From the NCBI RefSeq assembly GCF_002075285.3, contig NZ_CP021983.2, forward strand, positions 5,130,001-5,162,000: a stretch of DNA of 32,000 bases, written 5' to 3'. Each line of letters starts with the position of its first letter. Position 1 is the first letter of the stretch. Position numbers and translations under genes: made by a program. Origin of the DNA: Halomicronema hongdechloris C2206. Its GTDB lineage: Bacteria; Cyanobacteriota; Cyanobacteriia; Phormidesmidales; Phormidesmidaceae. Below the pieces are notes generated by a model, which ran no database searches, was not told the origin of the DNA, and saw nothing but the letters and a program-made list of their open reading frames with translations. This document shows, one piece after another, positions 3,201-10,103 of this stretch.

Positions 3201-3267
3201 AAATGCAGCCTTTCCACACTAGTCAACAGAGGCATAATTTCTGCCACAGAGTGCTAGTTAGCCCTGG

Positions 3268-4569
3268 TTATAGCGCGGCGAATACCTCGCGAGCTGCGGC
3301 CAGGGTAGCCTGGATATCATCGTCGGTGTGGGCCAGAGACGTGAATCCTGCCTCAAATTGTGAGGGGGCTAAATAAATACCCCGCTCCAACATGCCCCGA
3401 TGAAAGCGGCTGAATTTTTCCAGATCAGACTGCTTGGCATCTTCGTAACGATGGACCGGTCCCGCCTGGAAGAACATGCCAAACATGGCGCTGATATGGC
3501 CGCCAAAGGTAGCATGGCCACTCTCTTTAGCGGCCTGCAGCATCCCCTCGATCAGGGTTTTAGTGGTGCGCTGCAGCTGCTCATAGGTACCCGGTCGCTT
3601 CAGCAGCTCCAGGGTCTTAATCCCGGCGGTCATGGCTAGGGGATTGCCGGAAAGGGTGCCCGCCTGGTACATGGGGCCAGCAGGGGCCACCATTTCCATG
3701 ATGTCTCGCCGACCGCCATAGGCGCCCACCGGTAGGCCACCGCCAATGATTTTGCCCAGGGTAGTGAGATCAGGGATCACGTTGAACTTCGCTTGAGCCC
3801 CACCGTAGGCAATGCGGAAGCCCGTCATCACTTCGTCGAAGACCAGGAGAGCACCGTGTTCCCGAGTGATCTCCCGCAGCCCTTCCAGGAAGCCAGCATC
3901 AGGAATAATAAATCCGGAGTTGCCGACGACCGGTTCCAAAATCACCCCAGCGATGTCATCGGGATGCTCTGCGAAGAGGGCCTTGACTGCCTCTAGATCG
4001 TTGTAGGGAGCAGCCAGGGTGCTACTGGTGGTGGCTTTCGGCACCCCGGGAGAATCGGGCAAGCCCAGGGTGGCCACCCCAGAGCCTGCCTGCACCAAGA
4101 ACATGTCGCCATGGCCGTGGTAGCAGCCTGAGAACTTGATCACCTTGTCTCGCTTAGTGTAGGCCCGCATCAGCCGTAGTACCGACATACAGGCTTCGGT
4201 GCCAGAGTTGACGAAGCGCACCATCTCGATGCTGGGAACGGCCTCAATCACCATCTCTGCCAGCACATTTTCTTCCTTGCAGGGTGCCCCAAAGCTGGTG
4301 CCCTTCTGCAGAGCCTCTGATAGAGCCTGCAGCACTTCCGGATGGGCATGGCCGCAGATGGCAGGTCCCCAGGTGCCCACATAGTCGATGTAGCGATTGC
4401 CATCCACATCCCAGATATAGGCGCCGTTGACCCGGTCAAAGACAATGGGCTGGCCCCCGACAGACTTAAAGGCCCGTACCGGGGAACTAACGCCGCCTGG
4501 CATCAGAGTTTGGGCAGCGGCAAAAATCTCTTGTGATTTGGTTGTATTCAACGATGTGGTGCTAACCAA
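3268..4569 (-). CDS. hemL: glutamate-1-semialdehyde 2,1-aminomutase
   Basis: 433-aa ORF. The N-terminus ...[18 protein letters not shown], the motifs DEVMTGFR and [17 protein letters not shown] (PLP lysine region), and overall class-III aminotransferase features support the call. Confidence 0.95.
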
Positions 4570-4710
4570 AATGAGTCTCCTCGAGTCCTGGCGTTAAGAC
4601 AGCAGTCATGGGGTTGCGTTAGCCGCCATCAGGCGAGCTCAGACCTGTTTAGACCGCATTCACTATCCTATCGGTTGGGTTGAAACTGCTTAAGGGATAT
4701 TAAGGAATGT

Positions 4711-4806
4711 AGCGGAGGGGATAGGGGGAAAACGGAGGACGGAGGGCGGAGAACGGAAAGGGGGAGATGGGGAGTGAATGGGTAGGCGAGTGGGTGAGTA
4801 GCGGGT
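4711..4806. repeat. G/A-rich low-complexity block with G-runs
   Basis: The block reads AGCGGAGGGGATAGGGGGAAAACGGAGGACGGAGGGCGGAGAACGGAAAGGGGGAGATGGGGAGTGAATGGGTAGGCGAGTGGGTGAGTAGCGGG. It shares the words AGATGGGGAG, GGCGAGTG and GAGTAG with the block at 10026-10103. Confidence 0.7.
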
Positions 4807-4810
4807 AACG

Positions 4811-5092
4811 TCATGCCGCACGGTGATATCTGCCGTAAAGTCTGTCATACTCGGCCTGTGAACCAATCCAAAACCAAATCACTGTATCTCCGTCTATTTG
4901 ACCTACTGCACGATAGCTCTTACTCACGCGGGCAGAGTAAATGGGGAGTTCCGGATGCACCTTCTTGCAACGTAGGCTTGGATAGCTTGGGTCTGCTTGA
5001 AACTGCCGATAGGCTGCACGAGCTTGCTGCTGAACCGGTTGAGGCAAATTAGCAAACAGTCTGCAGAACTCAGCAGTAGTGCATGACTTCAC
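4811..5092 (-). CDS. type II toxin, RelE/ParE superfamily
   Basis: 93-aa ORF. The pattern ...DPSYPSLRCKKVHPELPIYSARVSKSYRAVGQIDGDTVIWFWIGSQAEYDRL matches the H/YPSL-.KK...-SvRv...YRAvG...-WFWIGsH.eYd pattern of this toxin family. There is a 4-nt ATGA overlap with the upstream antitoxin ORF. Confidence 0.75.
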   Translation of the reverse strand: MKSCTTAEFCRLFANLPQPVQQQARAAYRQFQADPSYPSLRCKKVHPELPIYSARVSKSYRAVGQIDGDTVIWFWIGSQAEYDRLYGRYHRAA

Positions 5093-5307
5093 AACGTGTC
5101 TGGATCAAGTTCTTGGGTTTCTCCAGAATGGTATTCAGCCATTGCCGAAGCTGCGAGTTTCGCAAGGAGATCTGGAGAACTGGAGAATGCTTCATCCCAC
5201 TGCCGTTCATCCTCCATTTCTTCCAAAATGATCGACGCGATCGCATGCTGCTCACTTTCAGGCAGGTTTCGCAACCTAGCGATCGCACGCTCAAGCAACT
5301 CAGTCAT
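5089..5307 (-). CDS. antitoxin partner of the RelE/ParE-type toxin
   Basis: I place the start at the internal ATG (complement of 5305-5307), giving the 72-aa product MTELLERAIARLRNLPESEQHAIASIILEEMEDERQWDEAFSSSPDLLAKLAASAMAEYHSGETQELDPDTL. This acidic small protein overlaps the toxin start, which is the canonical antitoxin-first operon layout. Confidence 0.7.
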   Translation of the reverse strand: MTELLERAIARLRNLPESEQHAIASIILEEMEDERQWDEAFSSSPDLLAKLAASAMAEYHSGETQELDPDTL

Positions 5308-5399
5308 CGCTACCTCGCTCAAAGTATCAGAGCACACTCTGCTTATTATCGCTGCTTTCAGGCAGATTAAACATTGTCTGAACACGAGTCTGAAATGCT

Positions 5400-5489
5400 G
5401 CTAAACTCCCTTTATCCTGCCAGCGCTGCTAGAAAGTCGGCATCGGTTCTAAAAACATCACGTCCCCACCCTGATAATTCTTTATAGCC
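5400..5489. repeat. attC-like imperfect-palindrome repeat, degenerate copy (S4)
   Basis: GCTAAACTCCC...CAGCGCTGCTAGAAA...AAAAACATCACGTCCCCACCC...TTCTTTATAGCC aligns by eye with S1 (GGCTAACGTTCC...CAGCTGCTAGTAA...AAAATCTCTCATCAGTCCGCTCCAACC...GTTGTTAGACC). It has the same orientation and lies just 3' of the start-less ORF remnant. Confidence 0.45.
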
Positions 5490-5671
5490 TATGCAGAATC
5501 CGGGGGATCATTGCAATCAATAACTCCAAGGACTTCAACAATTCGATAGATATTGAAATCACCTTGCCACTTTTCCCGCTCTGACTTGTAATCTGGTACC
5601 TCTACAAAGAATTGAGCTGCATAACGTTCCTGGTCAGCTGTTGCCGAAAAACTAATGATCCAGAAGCCGCT
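5489..5671 (-). pseudogene. start-less 60-codon open frame, possible gene remnant or cassette relic
   Basis: My translation is SGFWIISFSATADQERYAAQFFVEVPDYKSEREKWQGDFNIYRIVEVLGVIDCNDPPDSA*. It is bounded upstream by an in-frame TGA and has no ATG/GTG/TTG start. Its first third overlaps repeat S2. Confidence 0.25.
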
Positions 5672-5703
5672 TCAATCAATCCGCTGCACCAAGATTGTTA
5701 GCC
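5619..5703. repeat. attC-like imperfect-palindrome repeat (S2)
   Basis: The sequence is GCATAACGTTCCTGGTCAGCTG...ATCAATCCGCTGCACCAAGATTGTTAGCC. The arms pair with bulges (TAAC:GTTA, TGG:CCA, CAGC:GCTG). It is homologous to S1 at both ends and starts 13 nt 3' of the brnA stop. Confidence 0.6.
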
Positions 5704-5716
5704 CTTAGCGCACATT

Positions 5717-5974
5717 TTACTTCTCAATACGTTTAAGCTCTTCACGAACAACTTTTCGTAGGGTTTCTTCTAAAGATTCGCGACTGGCCTGAATATGCTG
5801 ACGCAAGGCTTCATTAATTAAAGTTTGGTAGTTGCCACCACCGGCAATATGAACTTGCTCACGAAACCACGCCAAGACTTCATCATCTAGCCGGATAGTG
5901 ATGCGGGTTTTACCTGATGGTGTTGGATCAATTGCGCCTCGCTTTCCTTGACTGAAATCATATTCCGCTGCCAT
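5717..5974 (-). CDS. brnA: BrnA family antitoxin
   Basis: 85-aa ORF. The sequence YDFSQGKRGAIDPTPSGKTRITIRLDDEVLAWFREQVHIAGGGNYQTLINEALRQHI matches the BrnA_antitoxin pattern (K.RITIRLD.dVL.wFk......g.gYQTLIN.aLR). It lies directly downstream of brnT. Confidence 0.85.
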   Translation of the reverse strand: MAAEYDFSQGKRGAIDPTPSGKTRITIRLDDEVLAWFREQVHIAGGGNYQTLINEALRQHIQASRESLEETLRKVVREELKRIEK

Positions 5975-5976
5975 GA

Positions 5977-6243
5977 CTAACCCTCCTGATATTGTCGGCG
6001 TTCTTGTCGAGTTGCTTTGCGAGCAGAGATGACTCGAATCTCGTCTCCGCGTAACGTGTAGACAACCACCAAAACTCTGCCAAATGCATCGAGACCAATA
6101 GTGACAAACCGCTCTTCGTCAAATCGCTCATCTGGAATGGTAATCGCCAGGTCATCTGAGAAAACTGGTACTGCATCAGCGAAGTCAACACTATGCTTAC
6201 GCAGGTTAGCGGCTGCTTTATCCCTGTTCCATTGATAGACCAT
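5977..6243 (-). CDS. brnT: BrnT family toxin (DUF497 ribonuclease)
   Basis: I place the start at the internal ATG (complement of 6241-6243), giving MVYQWNRDKAAANLRKHSVDFADAVPVFSDDLAITIPDERFDEERFVTIGLDAFGRVLVVVYTLRGDEIRVISARKATRQERRQYQEG. This is the typical BrnT pattern (.F.WD..K...N..KHgV.F.eA..vF.D......D......ER....G......l.VVyT.R.d.IRiISARkAt..Er..Y). Confidence 0.85.
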   Translation of the reverse strand: MVYQWNRDKAAANLRKHSVDFADAVPVFSDDLAITIPDERFDEERFVTIGLDAFGRVLVVVYTLRGDEIRVISARKATRQERRQYQEG

Positions 6244-6247
6244 CTCA

Positions 6248-6271
6248 ATTATAGTATGCACGTCTGTACAT
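6248..6271 (-). promoter_or_regulatory. candidate brnTA promoter -10 element (TATAAT) with an adjacent inverted repeat (possible operator)
   Basis: On the minus strand, TATAAT (complement of 6248-6253) lies 4 nt upstream of the brnT ATG. Immediately upstream is the inverted repeat ATGCAC-GTCT-GTACAT (6256-6271). Confidence 0.4.
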
Positions 6272-6406
6272 ATTGCCAGGCGCAAACTCTAATTCTGGTT
6301 ACTCTCCAGGTGACGACAAATTGCTGCCCTACAGGCAACCTTGCGACCGACTTGGTTTAAGCACTGACAGGTAAGATTTATGCACCGCCCCGACCGAAGA
6401 TTTGAG

Positions 6407-6493
6407 GGCTAACGTTCCGGCTGAGCAGCTGCTAGTAACCTCTGCAACATGACCAAAATCTCTCATCAGTCCGCTCCAACCGGGTTGTTAGAC
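6407..6493. repeat. attC-like imperfect-palindrome repeat (S1)
   Basis: The sequence is GGCTAACGTTCCGGCTGAGCAGCTG...ATCAGTCCGCTCCAACCGGGTTGTTAGAC. The arms pair as GGCTAAC:GTTAG(A)CC, CCGG:CCGG and GAGC:GCTC, with unpaired bases between the boxes. The terminal heptamers fit RYYYAAC / GTTRRRY; read on the minus strand, GTCTAAC fits exactly. Confidence 0.6.
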
Positions 6494-6625
6494 CATGCCC
6501 GACTGATCGCTTCCAACTAGCAATCCTGTCTTTATGCCTACTCAATCTGCTTGGGACGGACTTCAAATTCAGAACGCGCACGGAAAAAGCAAACATCAAA
6601 CTCAAAGAATAAATTAGCTTGCCTC

Positions 6626-6650
6626 AAAATTAAAGGCACATTGGGTGCTT
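6626..6650 (-). terminator. candidate intrinsic terminator on the minus strand
   Basis: A stem AAGCAC/GTGCCT (with one G-U pair) and 5-nt loop is followed on the minus strand by TTTAATTTT. It begins at the stop codon of ORF 6649-6888. Confidence 0.4.
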
Positions 6651-6888
6651 ACGTCCAAGCAAATGCGAGATCAACAGTGGAAAAAGAACTGACTTGTACA
6701 GCAACAACCACTGCACGAGCTTCAAATCGAGGTATCAAGCTTCCCAAGGCGGATTGGGAGGCGGCCCCTCTGAGCATCCAAGCCTTAGTGCTGGTGTTGA
6801 ATGAGTAGGGGTCCCGGAAAAGCGAAATTTCCTCGGGCGAGCCTTTGACTGGTGCAATTAGTGCGATCTTATCGTGATCCACCGCCAC
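6649..6888 (-). CDS. hypothetical orphan ORF (79 aa, GTG start); doubtful
   Basis: I recognise no family. The only support is the terminator-like hairpin at its stop and its orientation, which matches the neighbouring cassettes. A competing plus-strand ORF (6551-6808) overlaps it. Confidence 0.25.
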   Translation of the reverse strand: MAVDHDKIALIAPVKGSPEEISLFRDPYSFNTSTKAWMLRGAASQSALGSLIPRFEARAVVVAVQVSSFSTVDLAFAWT

Positions 6889-7018
6889 TGAGCGACAAGC
6901 CCTGCCATGGAGCTCAGCGGTAAAAGCTGGCCTTACTCATTAGCAGAGCAGGGCGATTGGGTGACGGTCTGATAGCGTAGACATTACGATTTAGATTGCC
7001 CGTCCTTCTAGCAAACCC

Positions 7019-7669
7019 ATGGCTGCCCCTGTCTCTCCCTCCTTGCAAACTGCTGTGCCCTTAGACCAGATCCGCTACAACGACCAGGGCTTGGTGCCTG
7101 CAATCGTGCAGGACTATCTGGACGGCACGGTACTGATGCTGGCCTGGATGAATCGAGAGTCGTTGCAGCGCACCCTGGAGACTGGCGAAACCTGGTTTTG
7201 GAGCCGCTCTCGCCAAGAGTTTTGGCATAAGGGGGCGACCTCGGGCCATCGGCAGCGGCTGCAGGCGATGCGCTACGACTGTGATAGTGATGCCCTGTTG
7301 GTGACGGTGGAGCAACTGGGCGATATTGCCTGCCATACGGGAGAGCGTAGTTGCTTTCACCAAGTTGACGACCATAAGCAGGCCCCGCCGGCGGATACCT
7401 TGTCCCAGGTGTTTGGGGTGATTTGCGATCGCAAAGCCCAGCCCACCCCTGACTCCTACACCTGTAAGCTATTGGCTAAGGGCGACAACGGCATCCTCAA
7501 GAAAATCGGTGAAGAAGCGGCCGAAGTGGTCATGGCCTGTAAAGACGACGACCCCGAGGCCATTGCCGGTGAGGTAGCCGACCTCTTTTACCATACCCTG
7601 GTAGCCTTGGCCCACCACGATGTCGACCTGAAGGCGGTCTACCGGCGGCTACAAGAACGACGTCGCTAG
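7019..7669 (+). CDS. hisIE: bifunctional phosphoribosyl-AMP cyclohydrolase / phosphoribosyl-ATP diphosphatase
   Basis: 216-aa ORF. The HisI part contains LVPAIVQD...MLAWMN.ES...T...G...FWSRSR...WHKG.TSG..Q......[21 protein letters not shown]. The HisE part contains [24 protein letters not shown]........E.ADL.YH..V.L. Confidence 0.95.
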
Positions 7670-7670
7670 G

Positions 7671-9428
7671 CTACATCCGCTCCAGCACCTGAATCCCCAA
7701 CAAATTCAGCCCTAACTTCAGGGTCCTGGCGGTGAGATCACAGAGAATCAGACGGGAGGTGCGTTGAGGATCCGCTGTCTGCAGCACCGAGCAGCGATCA
7801 TAGAACTGGTTGAACTTCTGGCTCAGCTCAAACAAATACTGGCAGAGACGGTTAGGGAATAGATCCGTAGCCACCTCCTGCAGCACCTCATCCAGCTGCA
7901 GAATGTGCTTAGCCAGGGTGAACTCACTCTCATCCTCCAGGCAGATGGGGGCCTGAGCCGACAGGTGTTCAAAGTCGATGCCGCCCTTACGGCTAATCCC
8001 CTGCACCCGCACATAGGCATAGAGCAGATAGGGAGCGGTGTTGCCCTGCAGGGCCAACATCTTATCGAAGCTGAAAATGTAATTGCTGGTACGATTCTGG
8101 CTCAGATCGGCATACTTGACCGCACCGATGCCCACGGCCTCAGCCACGGCCTGGATGAACTCCTCAGATTCCTGGCGTCCCTCCTCGGCAATGCGAGCCT
8201 CTAGATCGACCCGGGCCCGACTCACCGCTTCATCCAGCAGATCCTGCAGTCGTACCGTGTCGCCGGAGCGGGTCTTGAACTTCTTGCCATCTTCCCCCTG
8301 TACCACGCCAAAGGGCACATGGACCAATTCCACTTCTGGGGGCACCCAGCCAGCCTTGCGGGCCACTTGGAATACCTGGGCAAAGTGATTGCTCTGGCCG
8401 GCATCGACCACGTAGATGATGCGGTCGGCGCCGTCTTGATGAATGCGGTAGCGGATCGCCGCTAAGTCGGTGGTGGCGTAGTTATAGCCACCGTCAGACT
8501 TACGTACGATCAGGGGCAGCGGTTCTCCGGCTTTATTGGTGAAGCCCTCGGCAAAGACCACCAGGGCTCCCTGGTTCTCTTCCAGTAGGCCCTGGGCCTC
8601 TAAGTCCTGAACGACTTCAGGTAGCAGGGGGTTGTAGAATGACTCCCCCCGTTCTTCGATGCGAATATCTAGGCGATCGTAGATTGTTTGAAAGGCTTGG
8701 CGGGATTGCTCACACAGCGCCTGCCAGGCCTGACGAGCCTGCTCATCTCCCGCTTGCAGCGCCACTACGGCCTGGCGCGATTGGGCTTTGAAGTGGTCAT
8801 CGGCATCGAAGCGGGCCTTGGCCTGCCTATAGAAGGCCACCAGATCGCCAATGTCTACAGACTTGGAGTCGGCAATGGCCTGGGGGCAGACCTCCTGCAG
8901 ATGGGTGATCAACATGCCGAACTGGGTGCCCCAATCGCCGACGTGATTGAGTCGTCGCACCTCGTGCCCCATGAACTCCAATACTCGGGCGATGGAATCA
9001 CCAATGATGGTGGAGCGTAGATGGCCCACGTGCATTTCTTTGGCGATGTTGGGACTGGAGAAGTCCACCACGGCCGTCTGGGGCTGTTTCACTGGGGCAA
9101 TGCCGAGGCGCTTGTCAGCTTGCAAGCCCTGCAGCTGGCGTTCTAGGTAATCAGGGTTGAGCCGCAGGTTGATGAAGCCGGGGCCAGCAATCTCGGGGGG
9201 CTGGCACAGATCACTGACGTCCAGGTGCTGCACAATCTGAGTTGCGATCGCACGGGGATTCTGCTTCAGGGGTTTCGCCAGGGCCATGGCCCCATTAGCT
9301 TGATAGTCACCGAATTTAGGATTACTGGCCGGCACCAGCATCGGATCAGCCGTAGCCAAGTCAGCCCCAAAGGCCGCCACCATGGCCTGCTGCAACCGCG
9401 ACTGTAGGAGGGAACGTGTCGATTTCAT
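7671..9428 (-). CDS. argS: arginine--tRNA ligase
   Basis: It has the class-I HIGH-type motif [20 protein letters not shown] and the C-terminal anticodon-binding region ...[10 protein letters not shown]...[20 protein letters not shown] prefer the ATG at 9428 ([13 protein letters not shown]...), which gives 585 aa; the ORF track extends to 9473. Confidence 0.95.
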
Positions 9429-9653
9429 GCTGTGTGTGCCATCAACGCCAAAGATCAATACGAGACCATCCACCCATGGACCAGTTGCCTGCTGCAGGTG
9501 CCCCAGGCAACCCCTATCTCATCCTACGGCAATCCCTTCGTGGCCTCTATCCCCCGTGCCAGCCTAGTCTTCAGATAGACGAGCTATCCTCCGCCATCTA
9601 TTATTCTGACGGCATAATGACAAGGGAAGCGTAAAGAACCGGAGGAGCGCGCC

Positions 9654-10025
9654 ATGGCCAATGCCAGCAACGTCTTAGGGGGCAACCTCGAGGTGTGTGG
9701 CACCGATCCGATCACCGGCTTCTATCGAGATGGCTGCTGCAATACTGGTGCTGGTGACTTCGGAGCCCATGTGGTGTGTGCCCAAGTCAGCGAGGAGTTT
9801 CTAGCGTTGACCAAAGTCCAGGGCAACGATCTCGGCACCCCCCTACCTGGATTCAACTTTCCTGGCCTCAAGCCTGGCGATCGCTGGTGTCTCTGTGCGG
9901 CTCGCTGGCAGGAAGCCTTAGAGACAGGAGTGGCACCTCCAGTCATCCTAGAAGCCACCCACGCCTCGGCCCTGGAGCATGTCTCCTTAGATGATCTCAA
10001 AGCTTATGCCCTCGATCTTCAGTGA
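9654..10025 (+). CDS. DUF2237 family protein
   Basis: 123-aa ORF with NVLGG.LE.CGTDPITGFYRDGCC.TG..D.G.H.VCA.V..EFL.....GNDL.TP....FPGLKPGDRWCLCA.RW.EA, as I remember this family. Confidence 0.8.
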   Translation: MANASNVLGGNLEVCGTDPITGFYRDGCCNTGAGDFGAHVVCAQVSEEFLALTKVQGNDLGTPLPGFNFPGLKPGDRWCLCAARWQEALETGVAPPVILEATHASALEHVSLDDLKAYALDLQ

Positions 10026-10103
10026 GTGGAAGAGGGTAGATGGGGAGATGAGAAGGATGGCGAGTGAGAGAGGGGTCGAGTAGGGGATAGGGCCCATCGG
10101 GGG
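10026..10103. repeat. G/A-rich low-complexity block containing a canonical G-quadruplex motif
   Basis: It starts immediately after the DUF2237 stop codon. The motif GGGG-tcgagta-GGGG-ata-GGG-cccatc-GGGGG at 10072-10103 satisfies G3+ N1-7 repeated four times. It shares words with 4711-4806. Confidence 0.65.

Follow-up and report, generated by a model that had tools for sequence, protein, structure and literature searches.

The 32,000-nt window analyzed here (positions 5,130,001 to 5,162,000 of NZ_CP021983.2, Halomicronema hongdechloris C2206) carries hemL (3268-4569, minus strand) and hisIE (7019-7669, plus strand), and all credible genes in the interval flanked by these two lie on the minus strand. 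Our subject is a pair of imperfect palindromes in this interval, S1 and S2, and the question whether they are attC recombination sites of an integron. In blastn against the closest relative on record (locus L124, whose HisIE is 94% identical), the window aligned over 3262-4744 and 6959-10035 only, and the DNA between these two blocks is therefore a strain-specific islet, lying between the promoter regions of hemL and hisIE. L124 retains the gene order hemL ... hisIE-argS, and its gap (4452-9943) holds 5.5 kb of unrelated genes (ParE_toxin, PIN, Uma2, NACHT/WD40 and NfeD), in which no attC was found with the covariance model of the S1/S2 family described below. Judged from the sequences of these two strains, the hemL-hisIE gap is a variable hotspot. 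Within the islet, the brnT-brnA and ParE-like gene calls of the original prediction were confirmed by Pfam matches above the cutoffs, and by these matches brnT and brnA are a BrnT/BrnA type II toxin-antitoxin pair. The features of the interval are collected in Table 1.

Table 1. Features of the hemL-hisIE interval in window positions; L numbers denote loci fetched for comparison.
Feature	Position	Strand	Evidence
Strain-specific islet between the hemL and hisIE promoter regions	4745-6958		blastn against closest relative L124
attC site S1	6407-6493	-	own covariance model 93.5 bits, E 4e-24; published Cyanobacteria attC profile 45.4 bits, E 2.7e-13
attC site S2	5619-5703	-	own covariance model 59.7 bits, E 1e-14; published Cyanobacteria attC profile 23.0 bits, E 2.7e-6
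Complete brnT-brnA gene cassette, 788 bp	5625-6412	-	homologous cassettes in L115, L116
brnT toxin gene, ATG 6243-6241	5977-6243	-	PF04365 BrnT_toxin 102.7 bits, cutoff 34.5
brnA antitoxin gene	5717-5974	-	PF14384 BrnA_antitoxin 47.1 bits, cutoff 26.1
Cassette-internal promoter-like stretch TATGTACAGACGTGCATACTATAAT	6248-6272	-	conserved in L115, L116 cassettes
3' remnant of retropepsin-like aspartyl-protease cassette gene	6494-6735	-	about 85-90% DNA identity to L044, L123, L112 genes
ParE-like toxin gene	4811-5092	-	PF24732 ParE_like 43.5 bits, cutoff 24.4
Antitoxin partner of ParE-like toxin, conserved ATG at 5307	5089-5307	-	67-68% identical to L031, L084 partners

On the top strand, which is the minus strand of the window, S1 runs from an R'' core GTCTAAC to an R' core GTTAGCC and S2 from GGCTAAC to GTTATGC, and the core-site test thus found R'' and R' cores with AAC...GTT at both ends of both elements. 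Read on the plus strand, the cores quoted in the original prediction (GGCTAAC...GTTAGAC for S1 and GCATAAC...GTTAGCC for S2), the common TAACGTTCC and the boxes CCGG:CCGG and GAGC:GCTC are all present in the sequence. The two elements share their ends in register (spacings of 788 and 790), with 78% matches over 23 nt and 77% over 30 nt; in the window, the consensus of the 30-nt right end is found at S1 and S2 only, and it appears in none of 100 shuffles. Both fold alike on either strand into a terminal stem xCTAAC/GTTAGx followed by an internal loop of 2-3 nt and, inward of it, a 7-bp stem, one unpaired base and a further stem, which is the proposed layout of R and L boxes with an extrahelical base. 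Six of the seven pairs adjacent to the loop differ between S1 and S2 with pairing kept, i.e., the L-box stem covaries. With filters switched off and E values up to 10, the only other matches to our own covariance model were S1 itself on the reverse strand (14.9 bits) and three stretches below 9 bits.

An independent description of such sites is available from Ghaly et al. (2021; Commun Biol 4:946, PMC8352920), who used 51 sites to construct an attC covariance model specific to Cyanobacteria; it has a 61-bit cutoff and a reported sensitivity of 61%. The consensus of this model (PMC8352920, supplement 3) reads GcCUAAC-AAgUC-GcU-G-cAGCGG-A-C...GCCGCUgAgC-UuaGuC-GUUAGgC, and AAC and GTT are nearly invariant in these 51 independently gathered attC sites (PMC8352920). 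We rebuilt the sequence-profile half of the model and ran it with nhmmer, and it is this profile that is meant wherever a match to the published model is reported. In the 32 kb it matched two places only, 6493-6408 (positions 1-86 of 87) and 5703-5619 (positions 1-87 of 87), both on the minus strand. Since both models match there, the published profile from end to end, the limits originally assigned to S1 and S2 are exact. The consensus of our own family is the reverse complement of the published one, with the two unpaired bases included, as the unpaired G and A at top-strand positions 16 and 23 of the published model match the extrahelical bases of the family. Of the 232 family copies found in other loci, the profile also recognised 217, each time on the other strand from the one matched by our own model. 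Therefore, the top strand corresponds to the gene strand and the plus strand to the bottom strand that is recombined, with the extrahelical bases on the 3' arm of the latter, as in classical attC sites.

S1 and S2 thus resemble the Cyanobacteria attC type of Ghaly et al. (PMC8352920) in length (87 positions in the model, 87 nt in S1 and 85 nt in S2), in consensus and in the G and A left unpaired in the top strand's 5' arm. They differ from it in that S1, S2 and the copies gathered here form a subfamily, whose uniformity is partly due to the search pattern, with the core-adjacent bases fixed as GGAAC-GTT and AAC-AACCC, two more pairs (CC:GG), and a spacer of 3 nt per side instead of the model's 5 and 6.

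The family itself was gathered in two ways. Blastn against plasmids gave copies in Kovacikia, Nostoc and Synechocystis, and a search pattern made from five copies, with 22 fixed bases and about two chance matches estimated for the genome collection, gave more than 120 matching stretches among the matches listed, nearly all of them cyanobacterial and belonging to many orders; viral contigs gave no match with the first, stricter pattern. In total, 123 distinct copies were aligned over 112 columns. The consensus structure of 25 pairs was set by hand and tested with shuffle and slide controls; it replaced an RNAalifold consensus, which placed part of the stem in a shifted register and was discarded. 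In the inner 15-bp helix, 94% of the cells are paired and compensatory changes occur at eight pairs. Changes on both sides were counted in 376 cells of the whole structure, compared with 187 +/- 11 in shuffles and 72-123 with slid partners, and the covariation score was 0.30 compared with 0.05-0.09 in the controls. Both unpaired bases, a C present in 118 of the 123 copies and a T present in all of them, stand on the plus-strand 3' arm, and none is found on the other arm; the extrahelical base is thus a C on the bottom strand, where classical attC has a G. The central spacer is an invariant GTT opposite GTT in an internal loop of 3 nt per side. Beyond TAAC/GTTA, the outer stem is paired in only 37-67% of copies, depending on the position, which would be expected if crossovers at the cores keep re-assorting the two outer halves.

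Imperfect palindromes of about 85 nt located just 3' of genes could also be generic repeats of the repetitive extragenic palindrome (REP) or miniature inverted-repeat transposable element (MITE) kind (REP or palindrome-associated transposable element type), spread by a transposase and unrelated to integrons, with their position after genes reflecting insertion tolerance or a role in termination or mRNA stability. The single copies on the Nostoc and Kovacikia plasmids would suit such repeats, as would the observation that most 8-kb blocks gave only one exact match to the search pattern. The organization seen in other genomes points the other way. Our covariance model gave 204 and 56 matches in two sets of fetched loci, several 8-kb blocks hold four to six copies, and by sequence profile 63 of the 66 loci with more than one copy are fully co-oriented, at a cassette-like median spacing of 1330 nt. 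In 93 of 103 intervals between neighbouring copies, the longest open reading frame (ORF) runs in the cassette sense, as in the window, and approximately half of these ORFs stop within about 50 nt of the element. Pfam matches of 150 such ORFs fall into 108 families, led by PIN, GNAT acetyltransferases and ParE-like toxins, and such diverse, toxin-rich content is typical of cassette arrays.

Moreover, copies of the family adjoin true integron integrases. An ORF in L115 matches the NCBIfam integron integrase model TIGR02249 (462.8 bits, cutoff 265) and is followed by seven co-oriented sites, with the integrase and the cassettes transcribed divergently, making L115 a complete integron. Halomicronema sp. 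CCY15110 (L129) shows the canonical layout too, with an integrase annotated as that of an integron, followed by one cassette gene on the minus strand and an attC. Hundreds of cyanobacterial proteins are named integron integrase by their sources, and several of these are encoded on contigs that carry family copies.

The brnTA unit allows the ends of a cassette to be located exactly. In the window it extends from the TT of the S1 R' core (6412) to the G of the S2 R' core (5625), and L116 and the complete integron of L115 each carry a copy, 76-87% identical at the protein level, that is flanked by two attC sites. A three-way DNA alignment shows homology from TTAGC(C/T)CTC after the upstream core to the cassette's own R', with unrelated DNA beyond. 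The homology among the window, L115 and L116 thus ends at the core sites, where breakpoints had been predicted to fall. The exact BrnT (two start codons) and BrnA proteins had no identical record in the assembly collection. What recurs is a gene plus an element bounded at core sites, and not the element alone. Together with the gene linkage, the neighbouring integrases, the recognition by the published attC profile and the restriction of extrahelical bases to one arm, as in attC, this leaves hardly any credence for REP- or MITE-like repeats, an explanation that we regard as largely refuted already.

During integron recombination, the bottom strand of attC (for S1 and S2, the plus strand of the window) adopts an imperfect hairpin fold when it is single-stranded. 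The integron integrase IntI binds the folded attC and cuts between A and C of the bottom-strand AAC, corresponding to G|TT on the top strand, and this cut excises or inserts a unit of the form TTRRRY-gene(s)-attC...G. In S1 and S2, the predicted hairpin would consist of an R box (xxxTAAC:GTTAxxx), an unpaired GTT/GTT spacer, an L-box stem and a variable tip, and the extrahelical bases, which are C and T when read on the plus strand and G and A when read on the top strand, would interrupt the L-box stem on its 3' arm. For brnTA, the limits of homology lend indirect support to such recombination of folded single-stranded DNA at G|TT.

Compensatory changes in pairs are equally expected for an RNA helix, and the elements lie in gene sense right after stop codons, as is also seen from the cassette-sense ORFs of which about half stop within approximately 50 nt of a copy. 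Hence, S1 and S2 might be structured RNAs in 3' untranslated regions, acting as a stabiliser, terminator or regulatory hairpin, with covariation arising from RNA folding. Scanning 4000-7500 against Rfam with E values up to 10 returned nothing beyond two chance hits, both to eukaryotic families, the S1 and S2 hairpins are followed by no T run, and the four terminator-like sites that were found (2.4 expected) all lie outside S1 and S2. Since an RNA element would furthermore leave the invariant AAC/GTT core, the linkage to IntI and the homology breakpoints at G|TT unexplained, we consider this explanation very unlikely. An RNA side-effect of attC hairpins is possible in addition, without replacing their reading as attC sites.

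We therefore interpret S1 and S2, with a probability of about 0.9, as cyanobacterial-type integron attC sites that form a short integrase-less array in the variable hemL-hisIE hotspot, S1 being the attC of a truncated upstream cassette and S2 that of the brnTA cassette. The core of the original prediction, attC-like sites in an array without its integrase, thus holds for S1 and S2 by profile, by the arrays and IntI linkage found elsewhere, and by the brnTA breakpoints; of the three co-oriented elements it had proposed, S1 and S2 are borne out by their aligned ends and by both models, and the third, S4, is not (see below). The absence of an integrase from the window was also correctly predicted, as tblastn with cyanobacterial IntI found neither intI nor an intI pseudogene in the 32 kb, which cover 4.7 kb on the hemL side, and returned noise only (E = 2). 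Likewise, no intI from the H. hongdechloris chromosome was among the best 120 matches to two cyanobacterial IntI protein queries, which reach down to approximately 72% identity. CALINs, as clustered attC sites without an integron integrase are called, were defined by Cury et al. (2016; NAR 44:4539, PMC4889954) as a minimum of two attC sites that lie less than 4 kb from each other on one strand, with no intI nearby; S1 and S2 lie 788 nt apart on one strand, and the cassettes are unrelated to resistance genes, as in the CALINs of that study. The array differs from these in being of minimum size, with two sites, and visibly decaying, with a truncated cassette and a module devoid of attC.

Several observations weigh against the attC interpretation. 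With the published sequence profile S2 scores only 23.0 bits, and the core heptamers of S1 and S2 depart from RYYYAAC/GTTRRRY at one or two degenerate positions (GGCTAAC and GTTATGC in S2). The unpaired spacer has 3 nt per side in the S1/S2 subfamily as compared to 5-6 nt in classical sites. Hairpin energies of S1 and S2 are no better than those of shuffled sequence (z -0.6 to +0.3), and the structure therefore rests on covariation and not on energy. Because the gathering pattern fixes 22 bases, AAC and GTT among them, the invariance of these positions in the 123 copies reflects ascertainment. Finally, the whole case is comparative, being built on family membership, covariation, array architecture, orientation, IntI linkage elsewhere and breakpoints.

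On this reading, the array comprises, in gene sense, a 5'-truncated, frame-interrupted aspartyl-protease cassette ending in S1, an intact 788-bp brnT-brnA cassette with a promoter-like stretch ending in S2, and a last ParE-like toxin-antitoxin module of cassette origin that has lost its attC. IntI would once have assembled this array, which would now be decaying, and the brnTA cassette may still be mobilisable by an integrase supplied in trans.

How the array came to stand between hemL and hisIE is a separate question. It could be the stump of a complete chromosomal integron from which intI and attI were deleted in place, as opposed to having been seeded at a secondary GTT site by a trans-acting integrase or moved there as a piece by rearrangement. 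The first cassette breaks off at about 6735, and between this point and the conserved hisIE promoter region lie 220 nt of unrelated DNA, the place that attI and intI would have occupied; the last module lacks its attC, so that deletions clearly happened. The window holds no detectable intI fragment, though, and since L124 has unrelated genes in the same interval and lacks attC there, an ancestral integron cannot be seen at this site. In addition, Cury et al. (2016; PMC4889954) reported that 95% of CALINs have no intI pseudogene nearby and listed several possible origins. On balance, we regard a stump as conceivable but doubtful. A broader proposal would be that the hemL-hisIE gap is a recurrent Halomicronema landing site filled by different mobile systems with toxin-antitoxin-rich DNA, that the cassettes arrived by integrase-mediated insertion at a secondary site, and that brnTA can still be excised by an IntI encoded elsewhere or borne on a plasmid; taken as one joint claim, this is unlikely. 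If true, this would be a case in nature of cassettes seeded outside an integron, in a phylum whose integron biology is known from sequence.

Integrons of cyanobacteria and the attC type that they carry are already known, as are CALINs and toxin-antitoxin cassettes. Integrons were reported in Cyanobacteria by Cury et al. (2016; PMC4889954), and the view that such arrays are little documented in this phylum is out of date, given that study, Ghaly et al. (2021; PMC8352920) and the public annotation of intI. Our literature search found no paper naming both Halomicronema hongdechloris and integron. The analysis shows that the toxin-antitoxin islet of this chlorophyll-f cyanobacterium is to be read as a decayed integron cassette array and not as native chromosome, and it provides exact boundaries for the brnTA cassette (5625-6412), a worked example of how an integrase-less array erodes (truncated first cassette, lost terminal attC) and a 123-copy alignment, with its covariation and two extrahelical bases, that is usable for experimental tests of cyanobacterial attC sites. 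Beyond correct annotation its importance is little, as the islet is an ordinary mobile-DNA relic.

Sedentary chromosomal integrons such as the Vibrio cholerae superintegron have toxin-antitoxin cassettes with their own promoters scattered in their arrays, where they are thought to be stabilising. The brnTA cassette with its conserved promoter-like stretch resembles these, and PIN and ParE-like toxins are the commonest cassette families in the sampled cyanobacterial arrays; the differences are that the families in the window are BrnT/BrnA and ParE-like (PF24732), that the array is tiny and that a stabilising role here is putative. The attC of aadA7, a classical site of mobile integrons, has a core GTCTAAC...GTTAGxx, R and L boxes and a variable tip within approximately 60 nt. 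S1 and S2 share with it the core, the boxes, the variable tip and an extrahelical base on the arm of the R'' core, at a distance of about 8-9 nt from it, and differ from it in being longer (85-87 nt), in a second conserved extrahelical base in the inner stem and in that much more sequence is conserved across the cyanobacterial family.

The brnTA cassette had been predicted to carry its own promoter. A strict consensus scan gave no promoter in 4560-7030, and missed the stretch at 6248-6272 because its -35 hexamer is weak. All three brnTA copies share the conserved stretch TATGTACA...GTGCATACTATAAT, which lies 4 nt ahead of the ATG at 6243 and contains a perfect TATAAT (6253-6248) 4 nt upstream of the brnT ATG that is found in both homologous cassettes; the start codon itself is also conserved in L115 and L116. 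This conservation suggests an internal promoter with a leaderless transcript. A near-palindrome TATGTACA/TGCATA overlaps the TATAAT within 6248-6272, and L115 and L116 have kept it in their brnTA cassettes. It may serve BrnA as an operator and may point to a leaderless mRNA.

Upstream of S1, in gene sense, the original prediction had placed an orphan ORF, which turned out to be the remnant of a truncated cassette gene. Its counterparts in L044, L123 and L112 are the 3' ends of 140-aa genes standing ahead of attC sites, and the full-length genes match PF13650 Asp_protease_2. In the window the 5' part is missing, the frame is interrupted and homology ends near 6735, and we therefore classify it as a pseudogene remnant.

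The ParE-like toxin at the other end of the islet is 74% identical to that of L084 (4793-5047), and homology of its antitoxin partner to those of L031 and L084 begins at the ATG. In L084 an attC lies 13 nt after the toxin stop codon; in the window the 3' end of the toxin gene diverges from L084, and neither model found an attC after it. Directly after the stop codon stands GGGTAAC (4805-4811; AC-GTTACCC on the top strand), which looks like an attC R' end and might be what is left of the lost site's R', 7 nt being too short to carry this claim. In L031 the ParE-like module is followed at approximately 3620-3650 by only an R''-like AAGCTAAC, with unrelated DNA beyond, and L031 is thus a second toxin-antitoxin cassette with a truncated attC. 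The left edge of the islet falls inside a purine-rich tract of the plus strand (GGAGGGGATAGGGGGAAAACGGAGGACGGAGGGCGGAGAACGGAAAGGGGGAGATGGGGAG..., 4715-4800) upstream of hemL, of which L124 carries a similar, diverged version.

Two further candidates were rejected. S4 (5400-5489), proposed as a degenerate third element, and a weaker match over the hemL start codon (4560-4624) neither align with S1 and S2 nor form a comparable predicted hairpin, and both went unmatched by our covariance model with filters off and by the published profile at E values up to 10; the hemL match moreover sits inside DNA conserved with L124. Since S4 is not an element, the units described as running from S2 to S4 and from S4 towards hemL have no boundary there. 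Between S2 and the antitoxin start, 5386-5624 holds a start-less open frame (...FFVEVPDYKSEREKWQGDFNIYRIVEVLGVIDCNDPPDS) with no homologue in the fetched loci, its longest open stretch being without a Pfam match.

Other loci gave additional observations on the family. In L129 (1528-1633 and 9000-9106), a second attC group of opposite orientation lies 7.5 kb from the intI-proximal one. Because genes of the type IV secretion system-coupling type, ParA and ParB adjoin intI in this locus, its setting suggests a plasmid or an integrative conjugative element. On the Nostoc cf. commune plasmid pANSO36B (L002, 1261-8079), a single attC copy follows a sigma-70 factor gene, and a Tn7-like module encoding a TnsA C-terminal-domain protein, an AAA ATPase and TniQ lies approximately 1.3 kb away, with one locus tag between the two absent from the gene table. 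Cyanobacterial-type attC arrays were also present on contigs binned as 'Candidatus Saccharibacteria' (L032 and L049, the latter with five sites) and 'Aggregatilineales' (L039), which points to mis-binning or inter-phylum transfer. Finally, one cassette ORF among loci L001-L123 matches Arr-ms, a rifampin ADP-ribosyltransferase (E 1e-46), of a family known from resistance cassettes.

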